DNA from: a virus
Lineage: Duplodnaviria > Heunggongvirae > Uroviricota > Caudoviricetes
Strand: one strand, 5' to 3'
Length of the DNA stretch: 31,147 nt
IMG/VR virus record: IMGVR_UViG_2671180864_000006
Within the stretch, counting starts at the first letter, position 1, and the number at the start of each line of letters is the position of its first letter. The notes under the pieces are model-generated. The model ran no database searches. It worked only from the letters and a program-made list of their open reading frames with translations, and had not been told where the DNA came from. The position numbers and the translations under genes were made by a program. Shown piece after piece: positions 5,585-14,657 of the stretch.

Positions 5585-5863
5585 ATGGCAAAAGTCCTTA
5601 ACACATACGAACAAGCGGATTTTGAGCGTTTGGCGGCGTTCTACCCATACCGTAATGAACATGGGCTACCGGTACTTGAAGAAAGCCTAGAGGATTATGC
5701 GAAACGCACAAATCAAAGCATTCTCGCTGTAAGAAGGCAGGCTGATAGATCGGTAATTCCCGTTACTCAAGAAGGAAGAAACACAAAACGCAAAGTAAAT
5801 CTCTTCGCAATTTTCCTGAAAACCATCAGAAACGCAGAGAAATACGTGCAGATGACAAAATAA
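5585..5863 (+). CDS. Cox-position early regulator/excisionase-like protein
   Basis: 92-aa ORF divergent from the repressor, in the position of P2 cox; assigned by position and size only, sequence similarity to P2 Cox is not evident by eye. Confidence 0.45.
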   Translation: MAKVLNTYEQADFERLAAFYPYRNEHGLPVLEESLEDYAKRTNQSILAVRRQADRSVIPVTQEGRNTKRKVNLFAIFLKTIRNAEKYVQMTK

Positions 5864-7168: not shown

Positions 7169-7410
7169 CCATTCTGGACTACATCGCTGCCAATCCGGGT
7201 TGTAGCAGTGGAGAAATCGCCGCAGCACTGAATACACCAACCACAACCATTAATGCGGAGCTACGCCGTCTCTGGCGCAGCGGTTTAGTCACAAGAAAAG
7301 AGCGCAAAACAGGCGGTCGCTTTTCTTATCAGGTAAACCTGATGCCGTTTGGGTGTAGCAACCCACTAACCCAGATGTTCAACCAGCTACTGAGGGAAAT
7401 CAGAGCATGA
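7165..7410 (+). CDS. Putative winged-helix DNA-binding protein
   Basis: 81-aa ORF; start overlaps the upstream stop; helix-turn-helix-like segment (SSGEIAAALNTPTTTINAELRRLWRSGLV). Confidence 0.5.
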   Translation: MTILDYIAANPGCSSGEIAAALNTPTTTINAELRRLWRSGLVTRKERKTGGRFSYQVNLMPFGCSNPLTQMFNQLLREIRA

Positions 7411-7551
7411 GCACCTCCAACTGCCGGAAACCACGTCGGGCTTCAGCAGCTCATCCGGCAGCAAAACAAACTCCATTAATTCCTGTTCCGGGCCTTTCCT
7501 GCACCTTGCGGCGGGAGGCCTTCGCACATCTGTAACAAGAGGATTGCCGCA

Positions 7552-7923: not shown

Positions 7924-10746
7924 ATGACGGCAGAGTACATCAGGGACTGGCAACAACCGCGCCACGCAGTGGGGCGTGAAGGAACGGGGATCCCCGCTCC
8001 TGAATCCGCGCTTTCCTCCTGGCTGGATGCCCACCGGGCAGAGAACGAGCGCCGCCAGGAAATGGCTGATGCGGCGTTCTCCGCCACGCCACTGGGCAAC
8101 CTGATTAATAAAAGCCTGGACGCACAGGAAAAACAGGACAAAACCATCACACTGGCAGGAGACGCCAGAAAACAGGCACGCGGCGCGGTGGATGAAGCCA
8201 TGGCCTCGCTGCGCCTGCTGCCGTCCTATCTGCGCGATCCGCTTATTCGCCACCTCTCCTTCCTGCGCAAAAAACAGGAAGCCGATCGCCGGAAAGGCAA
8301 AAAGAGCTGGCAGGCGGAACGCTATGCACGCGGAACCCTGCGCAAAATATTCGAACGTCTGGATCGCACTGACGGACACTGGCTGACACCGGGTTATCGC
8401 TCCCTTGCCGGACGTGAACGCCTGGACGATTTGCTTTACCTGCCGCAACTCAACAAACACCAGATACAGACGCTGGCCACCATGACGGCGGCGATGTTCA
8501 GCAGCACCTTCGAAAAACTCTGCGATGGTTTTGGCGCGACTGATGGCGAGCTGACCATGGATGTAACGCTGAAGGCGTATCAGATGCTGGCCCGCATGGC
8601 GTTACACTTACACGCCATGCCTCCGCATTATGACGCACTGACAACAGACAAAGACCGGAGGCACGAACCGGACACAGAACTGCTGCCGGGCGCAATCCTT
8701 CGCCTGACCTGTGCGGAATGGTGGAAACGCAAACTGTGGCTGTTACGTTGCGAGTGGAGAGAAGAACAACTTCGCGCCGCCTGTCTGGTTTCCAGAAAAA
8801 CATCGCCCTATCTGAGCCAGGACGCGTTAAGCGAGTTTCGCGCACAGCGCGAGAAAACACGCGATTTCCTGAAAAGTTTCATGCTGGAAAATGAAGACGG
8901 GTTCACGATTGATCTCGAGACGGTGTATTACGCGGGAGTAAGTAACCCGGTTCACCGTAAGGCAGAAATGATGGCCACCATGAAGGGGCTGGAACTTCTG
9001 GCCGAAGCCCGTGGCGACAAAGCGGTGTTTCTGACTGTCACCTGCCCGTCAAAATACCACGCCACAACGGAGAACGGTCATCCGAATCCCAAATGGAACG
9101 GGGCCACAATGCGCGACTCCAGCGATTACCTGGTTAACACGTTTTTTGCGACGGTCCGCAAAAAACTGAACCGCGACGGCCTGCGCTGGTATGGCATCCG
9201 CACGGCGGAGCCTCACCATGACGGCACCGTGCACTGGCATATGATGGTCTTTGCTCATCCGGAAGAAATCGACACCATTGTGTCCCACACCCGCGATATT
9301 GCCATTCAGGAAGATCGTCACGAGCTGGGCGATGACATAACTCCGCGCTTTAAGGCGGAGTATGTAGACGGCTCAAAAGGCACGCCAACCAGCTACATCG
9401 CCACCTACATCGGGAAAAACCTGGACAGCCGCGCCGTGGATGGCATCGACCCGAAAACGGGCAAGCCACGCGTTGACCACGAAACCGGAAAATCAATGGC
9501 CGAGAGCGTGGAACGCGCCATCGGCTGGGCGCGCCTTCACCGGGTCCGCCAGTTCCAGTTCTTTGGCATCCCCTCCCGCCAGGTATGGCGTGAACTGCGC
9601 CGCCTTGCCAGCCAGATGGCACGCAACCCGGAAGGCCCGCAACGGCTGAAGGATGACGCAATGGATGCGGTTCTTGCCGCCGCTGATGCCGGATGTTTTG
9701 CCACCTACATAGAGAAACAGGGCGGCGTACTTGTTCCACGCAAAGACTACCTGATTCGCACCGCCTACGACCTCGCCGATGAGCTGAACGATTACGGCGA
9801 ACAGAGCGTACAGATTTACGGGATCTGGTCACCACTCATCGGGGAATCCTCCCGTGTGTGCACGCATCCGGATAACTGGAAGCTGGTAAGACGCAAACCG
9901 GAAGCGGAAGACAGCGCCCGCGAAAATGGTTTTGACCTTCAGGGCGGCCCTGCCGCCCCTTGGACTCGTGGCAATAACTGTCCCCGTGTACAGGAAACGG
10001 ACAACAACGGGACAGAACAGCCGGAAGAACGGCCAGCACCGTGGCCGCAGCTCCCTGACGGCGTTGATGTGGATGAATGGATGCGCTCACTGAAACGGCA
10101 CGAACGCCGGGCGCTGATGCGTTCGCTTCGTGACAAACAGGCAAAAAACAGCAGTGATGAAATGCAGAGCTGGACACAGAGCCGCAAACAGCAGCGGCCT
10201 TTGCCTGATAACCACGAATTACTCGCTAAAGAATGGCGGGAGTCTGCTGAATCTCTCGGCCTGCATATCGGTGAACAACAGATGCAGCACCTGTTACGGG
10301 GCGGCAGTCTGTACGTTGACGGCAGCATCATTGCACCGCAGGGATTTGAAATTGTACGCAAACCGGATACCCGCCCGGACAGCCGAATCACGCAGCTCTG
10401 GCAGCGCCTGAGCCGTAATCATGGCGTAAGCAGCACGGAGATCCGCCATAACCCGGTCGCCAGCTATCTGACACAGCTGGGGGCATCAGACCCTGAAGCC
10501 GCCGCACGCCTGGCATCCACACTTCAGCAGGACCAGAACACCATGAAAACACCCGTTACCGTGCTTTCTGACATGCTGCGCGCCATCCGCGACGCAGAGC
10601 ACGCACAGAGAATCAGTGAAACCACTGAACGCGCCCGCCGCAAAGCAGACCTGCTGCGGGGTGGCCTGACCAGTGGAAACAAAAAACAGACAGAAACGGG
10701 ACTCACGAATCCCGTAAATGAGCAAAAAACGCGCAGCGATATATGA
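7924..10746 (+). CDS. A: Replication initiation endonuclease, P2 gpA-like (rolling-circle HUH)
   Basis: 940-aa ORF with HUH motif (GTVHWHMMVFA) and paired-tyrosine motif (SYIATYIGKN); carries a long low-complexity C-terminal region that makes it longer than P2 gpA as recalled. Confidence 0.88.
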   Translation: MTAEYIRDWQQPRHAVGREGTGIPAPESALSSWLDAHRAENERRQEMADAAFSATPLGNLINKSLDAQEKQDKTITLAGDARKQARGAVDEAMASLRLLPSYLRDPLIRHLSFLRKKQEADRRKGKKSWQAERYARGTLRKIFERLDRTDGHWLTPGYRSLAGRERLDDLLYLPQLNKHQIQTLATMTAAMFSSTFEKLCDGFGATDGELTMDVTLKAYQMLARMALHLHAMPPHYDALTTDKDRRHEPDTELLPGAILRLTCAEWWKRKLWLLRCEWREEQLRAACLVSRKTSPYLSQDALSEFRAQREKTRDFLKSFMLENEDGFTIDLETVYYAGVSNPVHRKAEMMATMKGLELLAEARGDKAVFLTVTCPSKYHATTENGHPNPKWNGATMRDSSDYLVNTFFATVRKKLNRDGLRWYGIRTAEPHHDGTVHWHMMVFAHPEEIDTIVSHTRDIAIQEDRHELGDDITPRFKAEYVDGSKGTPTSYIATYIGKNLDSRAVDGIDPKTGKPRVDHETGKSMAESVERAIGWARLHRVRQFQFFGIPSRQVWRELRRLASQMARNPEGPQRLKDDAMDAVLAAADAGCFATYIEKQGGVLVPRKDYLIRTAYDLADELNDYGEQSVQIYGIWSPLIGESSRVCTHPDNWKLVRRKPEAEDSARENGFDLQGGPAAPWTRGNNCPRVQETDNNGTEQPEERPAPWPQLPDGVDVDEWMRSLKRHERRALMRSLRDKQAKNSSDEMQSWTQSRKQQRPLPDNHELLAKEWRESAESLGLHIGEQQMQHLLRGGSLYVDGSIIAPQGFEIVRKPDTRPDSRITQLWQRLSRNHGVSSTEIRHNPVASYLTQLGASDPEAAARLASTLQQDQNTMKTPVTVLSDMLRAIRDAEHAQRISETTERARRKADLLRGGLTSGNKKQTETGLTNPVNEQKTRSDI

Positions 10747-10790
10747 AGCGCGCACAAAACAGGCAAAAACGGGATTTCAGAATCCCGTAA
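10693..10790. promoter_or_regulatory. Two 25-bp palindrome-containing repeats, candidate ParR operator/centromere
   Basis: AAACGGGACTCACGAATCCCGTAAA (about 10695-10719) and AAACGGGATTTCAGAATCCCGTAAA (about 10768-10792); each has 8-bp inverted arms ACGGGAnT/AnTCCCGT; one overlaps the 3' end of A, the other lies about 30 bp upstream of the parM-like start. Confidence 0.45.
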
Positions 10791-10822
10791 ACGATTAATT
10801 AATCAACATAAGGAAAAGCGAC

Positions 10823-11782
10823 ATGAAAATTTGTATCGACGACGGCTCCACCAACATCAAGCTGGCATGGACTGAGAACGGCGAACGCCGCAACGCCATC
10901 AGCCCGAACAGCTTCAAGTCGGAATGGTCTGCGCCGTTCGGTGGCATGCAGCCCGCGAACTACATGCTTGATGGCGTGCGCTATGGTTTTGATCCGGTCA
11001 GCGATCGCTTTGTCCAGACAACCGACACGCAATACCAGTACAGCGATGTAAATGTCATTGCCATTCATCACGCGCTGGTCAAATCAGGCATCACGCCACA
11101 GGAGGTGGATGTGGTTGTCACCCTGCCACTGAGCGAGTATTTCGACACAAACGCACAGCCGGACATGGCCAACATCAACCGCAAAAAAGCGAACGTTATG
11201 CGCCCGGTGGAGTACCAGAACGGCGAAGCATTCACTATCCGTAACGTGCGGGTTATGCCTGAATCCATTCCGGCTGGCTTTAAGGCACTGGCTGACATGA
11301 GTCCGTTTGAATCCCTGCTGATTGTGGATTTGGGCGGAACCACGCTGGATGTGGCAAAGGTTCAGGGGCAACTGGCAGGTATCAGCCAGGTGTTTTGCGA
11401 TCCACACGTAGGCGTTTCTCTGATGGCCGATGCCGTACTGTCGGTGATGGCCACTAACGGTATGCGCACCAGTCACCACATCGCCAATACCATTATCGAA
11501 CATCGCCATGATGAAGCCTGGCTGCGCCAGCACATCCACAATGACGCGCATTACGCCAGCCTGATGGCGGTTATTCGTGAAAAGGAAGAAACACTGAAAC
11601 AACGCGTGATCCGCGCGCTGGCGGGTTTTTCGGGTTACGGGCGGGTGATGGTTGTCGGTGGAGGGGCGGAGATTGTGGCACCCGCTATCCGCGAAGCCTG
11701 CGGAGTTAATGCGACTTTCATCGCGGACGGGGTGCCACAGTTTGCTCTGGTTAATGGGCTGTACGCAATGGACAAGGAGTAA
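10823..11782 (+). CDS. parM: Actin-like segregation ATPase, ParM/StbA family
   Basis: 319-aa ORF with actin-fold phosphate-1 (ICIDDGSTNIKL), phosphate-2 (IVDLGGTTLDV) and adenosine (VMVVGGGAEI) motifs, plus several short blocks matching plasmid R1 ParM as recalled (SPNSFK, YSDVNV, INRKK, LVNGLY). Confidence 0.8.
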   Translation: MKICIDDGSTNIKLAWTENGERRNAISPNSFKSEWSAPFGGMQPANYMLDGVRYGFDPVSDRFVQTTDTQYQYSDVNVIAIHHALVKSGITPQEVDVVVTLPLSEYFDTNAQPDMANINRKKANVMRPVEYQNGEAFTIRNVRVMPESIPAGFKALADMSPFESLLIVDLGGTTLDVAKVQGQLAGISQVFCDPHVGVSLMADAVLSVMATNGMRTSHHIANTIIEHRHDEAWLRQHIHNDAHYASLMAVIREKEETLKQRVIRALAGFSGYGRVMVVGGGAEIVAPAIREACGVNATFIADGVPQFALVNGLYAMDKE

Positions 11783-11786
11783 ACCA

Positions 11787-12098
11787 ATGACGACACCAAC
11801 CAGACGGATAAGTTTCTATCTGAAGCCTGCGGCCGTCAAGAACGAAAGCGAAGCATGCGCCTGGCTGGGCAGCCTTACACCAGAAGCCCGCAAAAGCGGC
11901 CAACGCGTGGCTTTTCTGGCCGGGCTGGCACTTCTGAAAATGAATCCAGCAGAGGCTTACCGACTGGCTGCATGGGCTGACGATGAGGCGTTATCGGTGA
12001 CACAAACCAGGACAGAACGCCCCGTGCCACAGCCAGTACCAACCGCACAGATAACCAGTCAGATAGCAGGGAATATCCGGGCATTATTTCCTGAATGA
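11787..12098 (+). CDS. parR: ParR/StbB-like small DNA-binding adaptor
   Basis: 103 aa from the ATG 5 nt after the parM stop, with AAGGAG RBS; resembles ParR in size and N-terminal pattern (ISFYLKP, RVAFLAGLAL), from memory. The track's 148-aa form overlaps parM and is rejected. Confidence 0.55.
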   Translation: MTTPTRRISFYLKPAAVKNESEACAWLGSLTPEARKSGQRVAFLAGLALLKMNPAEAYRLAAWADDEALSVTQTRTERPVPQPVPTAQITSQIAGNIRALFPE

Positions 12099-12158
12099 CG
12101 AATTTGACGGCTTTTAATTTTATCGGGGTGCACTGTCGCCCCGCACGAGGAAAACACG

Positions 12159-12683
12159 ATGAAAAAATACGAATACATGCTAATGAAAGAAGCACTGCGG
12201 GCTGGTCTGGCTCCCTGTCCTGTATCCGTAGAAGCTGTTGTTGGGAACACGATTTTCCGAACGCTGCGAAATCGCGTATCCGTGAAGATGGTTCACCAAC
12301 CACCCAAATCTACCAGCATGATCTATCTGCCGCTGCCCGAGGCTATCAAACTTATGCGTTCGCTGAAATTTGCGATTTGGATGCAGACACAAATCAACAA
12401 AGCGGTGCAAAACACCTTCGTTAAGAGACTAATACCGGAGCTTGCTGCCAGATGTGCAAAATGTACCAGACCCGCACTTCAATTTGATCTGTCATTGATT
12501 CAACAAGCTACGGAGGCAGAACTGTACCGCCTGTCACCTATCCGTGATGCTCACACGGAAGCATCAGAAATGTTCCGGCTCATGTTTCAATTTAATTTTG
12601 CCGTTCGACGCACACGCGTTCAGGTCAATCGCATGATGCAGGAGCAGGAAGAGTTAACACAGTACAAAGGGGGCAGCCAGTGA
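12159..12683 (+). CDS. Hypothetical protein, accessory-locus cargo
   Basis: 174-aa ORF with GAGGA RBS; no recognisable motifs. Confidence 0.55.
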   Translation: MKKYEYMLMKEALRAGLAPCPVSVEAVVGNTIFRTLRNRVSVKMVHQPPKSTSMIYLPLPEAIKLMRSLKFAIWMQTQINKAVQNTFVKRLIPELAARCAKCTRPALQFDLSLIQQATEAELYRLSPIRDAHTEASEMFRLMFQFNFAVRRTRVQVNRMMQEQEELTQYKGGSQ

Positions 12684-12919
12684 GTAATTCAGCACGACTA
12701 CAGCTTGGTTTTTCACCGCTATCAAAAACCATCGTATTGGCAAAAATGCGTGACTTAGGAGACGGAACAAAACGCCGCGTAGGAAATGATCGCGGTCGCG
12801 ATGTAACCAACGAGGCCGCTCAACTCGTTTGGCATCTAGTCATGGCAGAAGGCGGTGAAATTAATTGGGAGCTGGATGATGGTTCTCGTATGATTTTGAG
12901 GGCCGAGAAGAGTAAATAG
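12680..12919 (+). CDS. Hypothetical small protein, accessory-locus cargo
   Basis: 79-aa ORF; GTG start overlaps the upstream stop (GTGA), indicating translational coupling. Confidence 0.45.
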   Translation: MSNSARLQLGFSPLSKTIVLAKMRDLGDGTKRRVGNDRGRDVTNEAAQLVWHLVMAEGGEINWELDDGSRMILRAEKSK

Positions 12920-12933
12920 CTCAAGGGGGATTA

Positions 12934-13119
12934 ATGCTAAATGATGATGAAGAAGAGCTGCTTATGCAGGAATGGTCGCTCGGTGATTATGATAATGGTG
13001 AAAATGGGTGCCCGCATTGTGGCCGTTATCGTTTATGTATCTGCCAGAATGGAAAACACAGATGTGAAAAGTGCAATTGGTCTCCGGAACTTAATGACTA
13101 CGTGCCGATCGAGTGGTAG
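12934..13119 (+). CDS. Hypothetical Cys-rich zinc-finger-like small protein
   Basis: 61-aa ORF with AAGGGGG RBS; Cys cluster CPHCGRYRLCICQNGKHRCEKC. Confidence 0.5.
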   Translation: MLNDDEEELLMQEWSLGDYDNGENGCPHCGRYRLCICQNGKHRCEKCNWSPELNDYVPIEW

Positions 13120-13159
13120 AGGTAAGTCACACTAGGTGTTTTTTAGTTGATTTTATAAA

Positions 13160-13267
13160 TGCACAATAGTGCACAAATTTGCACAATTTTTTTGAACGAC
13201 TTTTTGCCCTTCCGGCCCGCGTGGCGGCTGGATCCGTCAAGGATCCGTGCATGCACAAAAAAACGCG
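13160..13267. repeat. Helically phased TGCACAA repeats and GGATCCGT direct repeat in the cos-proximal region
   Basis: TGCACAA at 13160, 13170 and 13180 (10-bp period) and again near 13250; GGATCCGT twice (13230-13237, 13241-13248); a GCGTGGCGG motif at about 13219-13227 resembles the start of P2/186-type cohesive ends. Confidence 0.5.
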
Positions 13268-13560
13268 TTTTTTCTGCGCGCAGGTGACGGGGGAACAGCC
13301 CGCGTTTCAGGGGGTAAATAGCATTCCCTGAACGATGTCGCAGAGATACAACAGAATGGCTGTATTTCTCACGCTGAGCGTGAAAAAGACGTGAGGGCTT
13401 TTGATTTGATGGGGTGAAAGGTAAGGCCGTCAAAATCGCACTGAGACGGCGAGAATATGCAGTCAACGAGGTGGGATTGCGTAAGAGTCTGACTGTCGAT
13501 GATGGCAATCAGCAGGAAAGCGTCGTGAAATTATCTGACTGATACAGGAGCTGGAGAGTC

Positions 13561-13583
13561 GGGGCATAAATTTTTTATGCCCC
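13561..13583 (-). terminator. Hairpin downstream of portal gene Q (terminator-like)
   Basis: Near-perfect palindrome GGGGCATAAA-TTT-TTTATGCCCC about 28 nt after the Q stop; no separate U-tract follows, so terminator function is uncertain. Confidence 0.35.
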
Positions 13584-13610
13584 GGCGAAGCAGCAGACAA
13601 GCGAAGCGCG

Positions 13611-14657
13611 TCAGGATGTGGGCTGGGTGTCTAACAGTGCGTAAGGGTTAAAGCGGATCACCTCTTCGCCAAGCCAGTCATTGATGTGCTTCATGGCCTC
13701 CATGACGGGCATCAGCTCGTTAATTGCGTAAACCCGCGCGGCCTTCTCCACATCACCAAACGCACTTTTTTCGCCCGGCATCGCCCCCATCAGTTGCGGC
13801 GGAACGCGGTGCGCAGCCAGCACATCATCACGGGATGCCGCCTTAACATTCATGAACTCATCCTTTGCGGTGATCTGCTGGAACGGCAAAATTTGCACCC
13901 CCTCTTTGCCCCCGTTGGGCGCATGAATGAGCACGTTTTTAAACGCACCACCACCACGTGCCCCCTGTAGCGTTTCTTTCAGGGAGTCCATGCTTTCGCG
14001 GTTTACCTGCGCTGCACCGATGTAGATGATGCACCCGGCGTGGGATCCGTTGTCGTAGTACAGTTTTCTGAACATGTCCGCCGAATGAGAAAGGCTGGCC
14101 GAGAGTAATGCGCCAAGATATTCCGGCATGCCGTAGATTTCCTGGTTAATATCCGGATTCATCAGGTGGCACACTTTGCCAGGACGAAACTGAAACGCAT
14201 CCTTGCCATCCTGCACATACCACCATGATTCAAGATCGCTTCCGCGTCGCATGTATTTCGCCAGGGCGTGCCGTAATTTAAGCGGTTCGCCGAGCATATT
14301 GCTCCGAAGCTCAAGGAATGCGTTACCGAACACAAACCAGTCCAGCGCCAGCGCCGAGAAATCCTGCCGGGAAAGCAGCGGGTGCGGAATATAGCAGCCG
14401 AGCAATACATTGCGCTTAAAGTAAAGCGCAGACTGATGCCAGGACGTTTGCCGGGCAGCTCTTGCCAGACCGTACCAGTCCACCGGGGTTTCATACCACC
14501 GCCCGTTATCAGCACAGTACATATTGTCCAGCAGGTCATGCCCGGTCAGGCGGTAAGGACCATCAAATGTGAATGCACTGAGCGACGATTCTTTCCTGAG
14601 CGCATCAGCGAGATCAATGCGTGAACTCATGCGCACTTTTTTATTTTTTCTGCTCAT
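13611..14657 (-). CDS. Q: Portal protein, P2 gpQ-like
   Basis: 348-aa ORF adjacent to and co-oriented with the terminase large subunit, leftmost gene next to cos as in P2. Confidence 0.85.
   Translation of the reverse strand: MSRKNKKVRMSSRIDLADALRKESSLSAFTFDGPYRLTGHDLLDNMYCADNGRWYETPVDWYGLARAARQTSWHQSALYFKRNVLLGCYIPHPLLSRQDFSALALDWFVFGNAFLELRSNMLGEPLKLRHALAKYMRRGSDLESWWYVQDGKDAFQFRPGKVCHLMNPDINQEIYGMPEYLGALLSASLSHSADMFRKLYYDNGSHAGCIIYIGAAQVNRESMDSLKETLQGARGGGAFKNVLIHAPNGGKEGVQILPFQQITAKDEFMNVKAASRDDVLAAHRVPPQLMGAMPGEKSAFGDVEKAARVYAINELMPVMEAMKHINDWLGEEVIRFNPYALLDTQPTS

Follow-up and report, generated by a model that had tools for sequence, protein, structure and literature searches.

Three small genes behind parMR in a P88-like prophage as probable single-gene accessory cassettes

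The window analysed here is the whole 31,147-nucleotide stretch of IMG/VR virus record IMGVR_UViG_2671180864_000006, and its host element is a P88-like prophage of the P2 family (Xuanwuvirus). Three small plus-strand genes, here called ORF1, ORF2 and ORF3 (together 12159–13119), follow a parMR partition pair and precede the cos-proximal region. With a probability of roughly 0.6, this trio represents three separate single-gene accessory cassettes that were brought together by recombination at gene junctions, are read through as early or partition genes, and each act alone. The original prediction had seen in them a candidate for an undescribed defence, exclusion or toxin–antitoxin-like module. 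That proposal is not upheld: the three genes very probably do not form a module. They assort independently of one another; none of the three proteins matches a family among the PADLOC-DB v2 hidden Markov models (HMMs) at E values up to 1, and neither Pfam, NCBIfam nor PADLOC returns a defence or toxin–antitoxin domain for any of them. That one of the genes, ORF1 in particular, serves in defence on its own is unlikely but conceivable.

Independence of the three genes

ORF1 (12159–12683, plus strand) runs from ATG to TGA and encodes a protein of 174 amino acids (pI 10.0) from an orphan family. ORF2 (12680–12919, plus strand, GTG to TAG; 79 amino acids, pI 9.4) belongs to DUF7446 (PF24233), and ORF3 (12934–13119, plus strand, ATG to TAG; 61 amino acids, pI 4.4) encodes a putative zinc-ribbon miniprotein with six cysteines. 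At 12680–12683 the GTG start of ORF2 lies over the TGA stop of ORF1 in the sequence GTGA. The ORF2 Shine-Dalgarno sequence, AAGGGGG, is found at 12667–12673, seven bases 5' of the start, and ORF3 has an AAGGGGG of its own at 12923–12929, five bases 5' of its start. The lengths of the three frames, their position behind a parMR-like pair on the same strand, the overlap of the first two and the separate ribosome-binding site of the third had all been described in the original prediction, and the coordinates, gene neighbours and sequence bear the description out.

Comparison with diverged homologues gives dN/dS values of 0.23–0.38 for ORF1 and 0.12–0.16 for ORF2, and in ORF3 an amino-acid identity of 62–70% is kept despite saturated synonymous sites. 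Lengths are conserved and residues invariant in the family alignments. The coding signature for which the original prediction had looked to comparative alignment is present, and the three ORFs are confirmed as genuine genes under purifying selection.

The full trio was found in one near-identical lineage only, made up of the window, a Shigella sonnei contig (L003) and four IMG/VR contigs. Among 5426 complete E. coli genomes, ORF1 occurs in 29, DUF7446 in roughly 185 (including 47 plasmid sites) and ORF3 in one; the whole trio occurs in none. DUF7446 is present in 4 of 50 viral loci anchored on ORF3, and ORF3 in 4 of 80 anchored on DUF7446. Both are found together in four of about 126 anchored loci, and these are the same four near-identical contigs, representing one lineage. 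In L002 (E. coli FDAARGOS_943) DUF7446 and ORF3 are preceded by an unrelated pair of genes, encoding a ClpX zinc-finger protein and a 75-amino acid hypothetical protein. Salmonella P2-like prophages (L100–L103) that have neither parMR, ORF1 nor DUF7446 carry ORF3 (90–95% identical) as the last plus-strand gene before cos. The partners of ORF1 are Ead, DUF7446 or other genes, and the conserved pairing expected of a type II toxin–antitoxin system is therefore not seen. In one of the four IMG/VR contigs (L015), a 1258-bp IS3-type element (orfA/orfB; L015 5544–6801) is inserted within ORF1 at a point equivalent to 12322–12329 of the window. The region is otherwise 99.8% identical, and ORF2 and ORF3 are intact despite the insertion. 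The co-occurrence data and this insertion together contradict the reading of the trio as a module.

The junctions between the genes show how such a combination is assembled. A linker at 12664–12686 on the plus strand, ACAAAGGGGGCAGCCAGTGAGTA, comprises the last codons of ORF1 (ending in KGGSQ and the stop), the ORF2 Shine-Dalgarno sequence and the GTGA stop/start overlap; the ORF1/ORF2 boundary in the window is ACAAAGGGGGCAGCCAGTGAG. The sequence AAAGGAGGCAACCAGTGAG, which encodes the final residues of an upstream protein (KGGNQ and the stop), a Shine-Dalgarno sequence and the GTG start of the following gene, is found 5' of Ead in L001. It is also found 5' of DUF7446, both in L002, where another gene lies upstream, and in the lambdoid, P22-like Salmonella phage 29485. 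The junction motif is present in 23 of 100 loci. This short common joint would couple translation across the junction and also offer homology by which P2-like and lambdoid phages could exchange cassettes; the linker at 12664–12686 is likely to be a joint for both translational coupling and recombination.

The three protein families

Every context found for ORF1 is the post-gpA slot of a P2-like prophage. The family comprises 8 clusters in a database of 5.8 billion proteins, and an exhaustive profile search of 1.84 billion proteins returned only 3 representatives, all from P2-like slots. The usual 3' neighbour is an Ead/Ea22-like gene, seen in at least 11 sibling loci and beside homologues 70% and 52% identical to ORF1; in the case of the 70% identical homologue, the Ead/Ea22-like gene is joined by the same 4-nt overlap as in the window. 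One homologue resides in a P2-like prophage without parMR (L007). Sequence searches of Pfam, PHROGs, PADLOC, NCBIfam and the PDB gave no match to ORF1. An AlphaFold2 (AF2) model calculated from a 6-sequence alignment has a predicted local distance difference test (pLDDT) score of 49.8, too poor for use; the C-terminal half is predicted to be largely helical in this unreliable model.

ORF2 matches DUF7446 with 61.0 bits against a Pfam gathering cutoff of 24.1, with residues 7–77 aligned to profile positions 2–67 of 70, and it also matches phrog_1578, a PHROG without assigned function. The family forms 372 clusters across Enterobacteriaceae; phage-plasmids carry it, as do 21 phage records that are mixed in lifestyle. 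In the leftward early operon of phage 29485, a DUF7446 homologue with 81% amino-acid identity to ORF2 follows erf, abc1 (anti-RecBCD) and two hypothetical genes and is itself followed by EaD. The Nonanavirus KarinMuster (Bas82), a relative of the virulent Salmonella phage 9NA, carries DUF7446 within an array of small genes. Ead adjoins DUF7446 in 14 of the 80 loci anchored on this family. An AF2 model based on 36 sequences, all at least 76% identical, reached a pLDDT of 58.5 and suggests a pattern of four strands, one helix and two strands; a Foldseek search of the PDB with this model of pLDDT 58.5 returned no match below an E value of 0.5. A literature search for DUF7446 found no papers.

ORF3 matches phrog_24897, likewise a PHROG without assigned function, with an E value of 3e-46, and its family comprises 36 clusters. 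The N-terminus is rich in Asp and Glu. The six cysteines are arranged as C26-x2-C29, C35-x-C37 and C44-x2-C47 within CPxCGRxRLCxCxNGKHRCEKCNW, and a near-invariant core extends this stretch with a preceding W-x-L-G-x-Y (W-x-L-G-x-Y ... C-P-x-C-G-R-x-R-L-C-x-C-x-N-G-K-H-R-C-E-K-C-N-W). Among 29 diverged sequences C29, C35, C44 and C47 are invariant, C26 is kept in at least 90% and C37 is conserved as well. The cluster is a conserved zinc-ribbon motif of two CxxC pairs with two extra cysteines, for which metal binding is putative. A sequence search of the PDB indicated weak similarity to the ribbons of L37ae, TFIIB and RpoM (E 0.14–0.7), and the match to Zn_ribbon_IS1595 (PF12760), at 17.1 bits, falls below the cutoff of 25.4 and reflects generic ribbon similarity only. 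No match at E values up to 1 was obtained to the Pfam family Ogr_Delta, which represents the late-gene activators of P2 and P4; the cysteine spacing of Ogr presumably differs from that of ORF3. Distant relatives occur in small-gene arrays of phages that have NinG/NinX or a P22-type portal. Wherever ORF3 is present in P2-like phages, a short conserved stretch, GAGAAGAGTAAATAGCTCAAGGGGGAT, precedes it. A role as a packaging accessory, an idea arising from its place as the last gene before cos and the terminase, was rejected, as its neighbours outside the P2 family are exonuclease, ParB-like and methyltransferase genes and not terminase. In FDAARGOS_943 ORF3 is not annotated by RefSeq.

The original prediction had found no placeable motif in the three proteins apart from the cysteine cluster. 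The cluster stands, now as a conserved zinc-ribbon motif, whereas ORF2 does belong to a catalogued family. The homology and structure-prediction searches proposed as a route to function assigned none, and yielded DUF7446, two PHROGs, a sub-threshold zinc ribbon and poor models only.

The variable gpA-to-cos slot

Around the trio, identity to Escherichia phage P88 and related phages (Peduoviridae, Xuanwuvirus) is 94–97% at the DNA level. The match to P88 is limited to parMR and the cos-proximal segment, and the intervening cargo is different in P88. Upstream of the trio lie gpA (7924–10746, plus strand; Phage_GPA, E 7e-131), parM (10823–11782, plus strand; StbA_N, E 3e-82, and also ParM_N) and parR (11787–12098, plus strand; Plasmid_stab_B, E 5e-23), the latter two each matching a partition-protein PHROG. 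Downstream, beyond a cos-proximal region of about 490 bp, portal gene Q (13611–14657) is encoded on the minus strand, with terminase gene P beside it on the same strand. The trio thus lies between replication gene A and portal gene Q, adjacent to cos, in the gpA–gpQ slot of the P2 family. It shares the strand of gpA, parM and parR and is closely packed, with 60 nt after parR, the 4-nt overlap between ORF1 and ORF2, and 14 nt before ORF3. The GC content of the cargo is 44.6–48%, versus 55–58% in gpA and parMR.

Variability of the slot was surveyed in 80 IMG/VR loci, selected at 91% or more ParR identity to the window, with the stretch from parR to the portal gene delimited in each; a scan of genome contigs with ParR gave 3 loci only, too few for a survey. 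Among about 85 loci at this level of ParR identity, slot length ranges from 993 to 4173 bp and more than 40 gene architectures were counted. The content varies among close relatives while the flanks are conserved. The original prediction was thus right in placing the trio in a variable cargo position of P2-like prophages, also a published hotspot, and the comparison identifies the three as variable cargo and not as conserved syntenic early genes. Genes recurring on the plus strand encode a ClpX-type zinc-finger protein (30 loci), Ead/Ea22-like proteins (23) and the ORF1 family (20), and several unnamed families recur there also. An RmrA-like helix-turn-helix (HTH)/M78 protein with a PIN-domain protein, resembling a RosmerTA pair, is further plus-strand cargo. 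On the minus strand of sibling slots are found Doc/Phd, a DUF3800 protein matching PADLOC PDC-M04A and a DUF4760 protein.

The gpA–gpQ interval is known as a defence hotspot (Rousset et al. 2022, PMC9122126; Moura de Sousa et al. 2026, PMC13586616), and around one quarter of P2-like phages have a partition system in it (PMC9122126). A protein of the ORF1 family, WP_000759755, is entered as 'hypothetical' in the locus tables of PMC9122126, and the trio is not in the set of systems assayed by Rousset et al. (PMC9122126). Genes of P2/P4 hotspots without an assigned role are often defensive: this was the case for 6 of 8 assayed P4 loci, and 15–32% of such P2 genes are predicted to be antiviral (PMC13586616).

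Sibling slots have further features of note. The standalone 110-amino acid protein with a ClpX-type C4 zinc finger (PF06689) is encoded in L002 (5469–5801), in P88 (L099, 2863–3195) and in 30 of the 80 siblings, and in many sibling prophages its gene comes directly after parR; the gene is absent from the window. The protein could mimic the N-domain of ClpX and interfere with ClpXP or with adaptor recognition. In L040, L042, L049 and L052, a 27-amino acid remnant (70% identical) of the 5' end of ORF1 is kept with the leader, around position 5773, beside minus-strand Doc/Phd, which suggests that cargo was swapped by insertion or deletion within an ORF1-bearing ancestor. In a more distant P2-like prophage (L004), an SSB gene (7228–7551) accompanies ClpX zinc-finger, ORF1 and Ead genes after parMR, a set reminiscent of plasmid leading regions and of phage-plasmids.

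The leader between the parR stop and ORF1 (12099–12158, plus strand) is 60 nt long and contains a small hairpin (CGGGG..CCCCG) and the ORF1 Shine-Dalgarno sequence GAGGAA (12147–12152). The same leader is found in sibling loci. Window positions 12100–12167 are 83% identical to an unannotated stretch (79103–79172) of the P1-like phage D6 (MF356679), which hints that phage-plasmids and P2-like phages exchange the leader along with a par or accessory module.

At its right border (13160–13194, plus strand) the variable slot gives way to the conserved cos-proximal backbone. TGCACAA is repeated there three times in an exact 10-bp phase, at 13160, 13170 and 13180 (block 13160–13186), with a further copy at 13252. 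Every P88-like locus inspected has kept the repeats, as have Salmonella P2-like prophages without parMR, and P2 and P4 have TGCAT repeats at the equivalent place. They are possibly a binding array for terminase or a host factor. A role as the ParR centromere was rejected because P2-like prophages devoid of parMR have them too. The transcript may end at a weak hairpin with a run of seven T residues behind it (13169–13194). A cos-like sequence, GGTGACGGGGGAACAGC, is present near 13286–13302, and the diverged relative L103 has GGCGAGGCGGGGGAGCA at the position aligned to it; the canonical 19-mer of P2 cos was not found in the window with 3 mismatches allowed.

With regard to the upstream genes, gpA has 940 amino acids here versus 761 in P2. 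Other P2-like prophages have a gpA of 768–869 amino acids and a separate downstream ORF of 136–185 amino acids, and the C-terminal part of the 940-amino acid protein may be a fused downstream gene. A 42-nt direct repeat, with copies at 10680–10721 and 10753–10794 that are 81% identical, straddles the gpA stop just 5' of parM, and each copy contains the palindrome ACGGGAyT..GAATCCCGT. The pair is a candidate for the ParR-binding centromere/operator (parC) and par promoter region. No Rfam family was matched within 10600–13700.

Proposed explanation, alternatives and known systems

The favoured explanation envisages the trio as the tail of a rightward string of early, replication and partition genes (gpA, parM, parR) in the hypervariable gpA-to-cos slot. 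The combination was, on this explanation, built by recombination at short conserved junctions that carry a Shine-Dalgarno sequence and a stop/start overlap and are also found in lambdoid phages. The ancestral order was apparently ORF1 followed by Ead/Ea22, and in this lineage the genes 3' of ORF1 would have been replaced by DUF7446 and the zinc-ribbon gene. A scan for consensus, sigma-70-like promoters found none ahead of ORF1, and one site in 3.1 kb where 3.1 were expected by chance. Because the genes are co-oriented and closely spaced and no promoter-like site lies ahead of ORF1, we infer that they are expressed by read-through from upstream and that ORF2 is coupled to ORF1 in translation. 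The phage contexts in which DUF7446 occurs favour this too. Production of the proteins would accompany that of the early genes in the lytic cycle, or match parMR in level. Each of these small proteins would bind a host or phage target independently of the other two, and, by analogy with the lambda exo-xis and P22 'ea' products, could tune host takeover, the lysis–lysogeny decision or counter-defence. The independence of the genes and the way in which they were assembled are shown by the data, and the time of expression and the manner of action are inferred from them.

Several points weigh against this explanation. parMR loci usually have their own ParR-regulated promoter, and low-level expression in the lysogen is possible. 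The RosmerTA-like pair of RmrA-like and PIN-domain proteins lies on the plus strand of the same slot, such that the argument from orientation is not absolute. ORF1 was never seen outside the defence hotspot of the P2 family, in which genes without an assigned role often prove to be defensive (PMC13586616). Both AF2 models are of low confidence (49.8 for ORF1 and 58.5 for DUF7446) and so give no structural pointer to a target.

An alternative, which we consider unlikely but worth keeping in view, assigns a single-gene, prophage-expressed defence or superinfection exclusion function to at least one of the three, with ORF1 as the most plausible candidate. It would agree with much of the remaining gpA–gpQ cargo, and the record of hotspot genes without an assigned role speaks for it as well. 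The location is a published defence hotspot (PMC9122126, PMC13586616); sibling slots hold Doc/Phd, the DUF3800 protein (PDC-M04A) and the RmrA-like and PIN-domain proteins; the ORF1 family is restricted to the slot; and the IS3 knockout of ORF1 in a 99.8% identical prophage is compatible with a costly accessory gene. However, no defence HMM is matched, no promoter of their own was detected for these genes, which are co-oriented with the early operon, and the relatives of DUF7446 and ORF3 sit in arrays of lytic-cycle genes, among them arrays from 9NA-like lytic phages. The proteins are moreover very small, without enzymatic or membrane features, and the trio falls outside the systems assayed by Rousset et al. 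A co-functioning defence or toxin–antitoxin module, whether of all three genes, of ORF1 with ORF2 or of ORF2 with ORF3, is largely refuted by the co-occurrence data and has very little probability left. It would account for the tight packing, the GTGA overlap of ORF1 and ORF2 and the hotspot location, and ORF2 and ORF3 are always paired in P88-like slots, although the 7 loci concerned are of near-identical DNA. Yet each gene occurs on its own in separate lineages and in more than one phage family, IS3 disrupts ORF1 in L015 with ORF2 and ORF3 intact, the same junction overlap joins ORF1 to Ead and an unrelated gene to DUF7446, and no toxin–antitoxin domain is matched.

It is similarly improbable that the trio supplies auxiliary factors of ParMR partition for plasmid-like maintenance of the phage genome. 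The genes lie directly 3' of parR on the same strand, and ORF1 is often the first gene after parR. Against this, ORF1 is absent from about 60, and ORF2 and ORF3 from 73, of the 80 loci with ParR at least 91% identical; a homologue of ORF1 (L007) and ORF3 (L100–L103) occur in P2-like prophages without parMR, and DUF7446 is present in phages that have no ParMR. The remaining alternative, that the ORFs are decaying remnants or chance frames, might appeal to the missing RefSeq annotation of ORF3 in FDAARGOS_943 and to the tiny size of the ORF1 family. It is refuted by the selection and conservation data and retains a negligible probability: ORF1 and ORF2 have dN/dS values far lower than 1, the cysteine motif of ORF3 is invariant across 29 diverged sequences, and lengths and ribosome-binding sites are conserved.

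We suggest tentatively, and with clearly less than even expectation, that phage–host conflict involves one or more of the three proteins as a new inhibitor or effector, acting in counter-defence or host takeover (ORF3 or DUF7446) or in exclusion (ORF1). ORF3 or DUF7446 might bind and block a host factor; both recur in early small-gene arrays of unrelated phages, for DUF7446 also in those of 9NA-like lytic phages. ORF1 might provide a new single-gene exclusion function; its orphan family is limited to the P2-family hotspot, and 1.84 billion proteins yielded 3 representatives. Published work already covers the slot, its variability and its partition genes, and DUF7446 and the two PHROGs are database entries without assigned function; neither Pfam nor PHROGs includes the orphan family of ORF1. 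The overall picture will not surprise specialists. Its interest lies in distinguishing two kinds of cargo in the cos-proximal hotspot of the P2 family, namely self-contained defence or toxin–antitoxin cassettes, several of them on the opposite strand, and operon-tail accessory genes. The latter would come from a pool common with the lambdoid exo-xis/ea genes and be joined by a common junction sequence. Hotspot mining may take from this the caution that adjacent small genes need not be a system. The trio also offers three compact candidates for host-takeover or counter-defence factors: an orphan 174-amino acid protein, DUF7446 and a conserved 61-amino acid putative zinc ribbon.

Among known systems, type II toxin–antitoxin pairs such as Phd/Doc resemble the trio in being small adjacent genes on a mobile element, with one 4-nt overlap. 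They differ in that the trio has neither conserved pairing nor toxin–antitoxin domains, and the Phd/Doc genes of sibling slots lie on the opposite strand. The anti-P1 system of 'three hypothetical genes' described by Rousset et al. in 2022 was considered as a counterpart and found to be unrelated; its proteins, from E. coli E1114, have about 230–370 amino acids.

The original prediction had drawn a parallel with tin and old of P2. Part of it holds: tin/old and other gpA–gpQ cargo occupy the same cos-adjacent slot, vary among close relatives and have a GC content below that of the backbone. However, tin and old occupy the opposite strand and have a promoter of their own, with a mapped transcript start, beside cos, and only orf91 is co-oriented with gene A in P2, as is the trio here. 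Moreover, tin and old encode large proteins with ATPase- or nuclease-type domains, whereas those of the trio are small and match no defence domain. From the co-orientation with gpA and parMR, the lack of a promoter-like site and the strand layout of P2, it follows that the trio corresponds in position to orf91 rather than to tin/old. Like the trio, P2 orf91 (DUF3850) forms the tail of a rightward early operon, in the same position and orientation ahead of the cos-proximal cargo, and it is non-essential. The sequences are unrelated, and neither DUF3850 nor ASCH was matched when the three ORFs were scanned against Pfam.

The exo-xis region of lambda (ea22, ea8.5, orf60a, orf61, orf63) and the 'ea' region of P22 are, like the trio, composed of small, packed or overlapping, highly mosaic and non-essential genes in the distal part of an early operon. 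The exo-xis genes rank with the first to be transcribed and bias the lysis–lysogeny decision (PMC10834534, PMC7093339). The setting differs, as the trio lies in a P2-family phage after gpA and parMR and not with exo/bet/gam. ORF3 showed no similarity to lambda orf61 or Ea8.5, with no lambda match by tblastn and no Ea8.5-type match in the PDB. Of the three genes only ORF2 is found in the lambdoid 'ea' position itself, within an early operon beside Ead/Ea22; ORF1 has no lambdoid homologue, and the relatives of ORF3 lie in NinG/NinX-type arrays with no defined exo-xis position. The link to the P22 'ea' region is a direct one for ORF2, whose homologue in phage 29485 (81% amino-acid identity) stands beside EaD. 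P88-like siblings in turn have Ead/Ea22-like genes in the slot occupied here by the trio, and the junction sequence is common to both groups.

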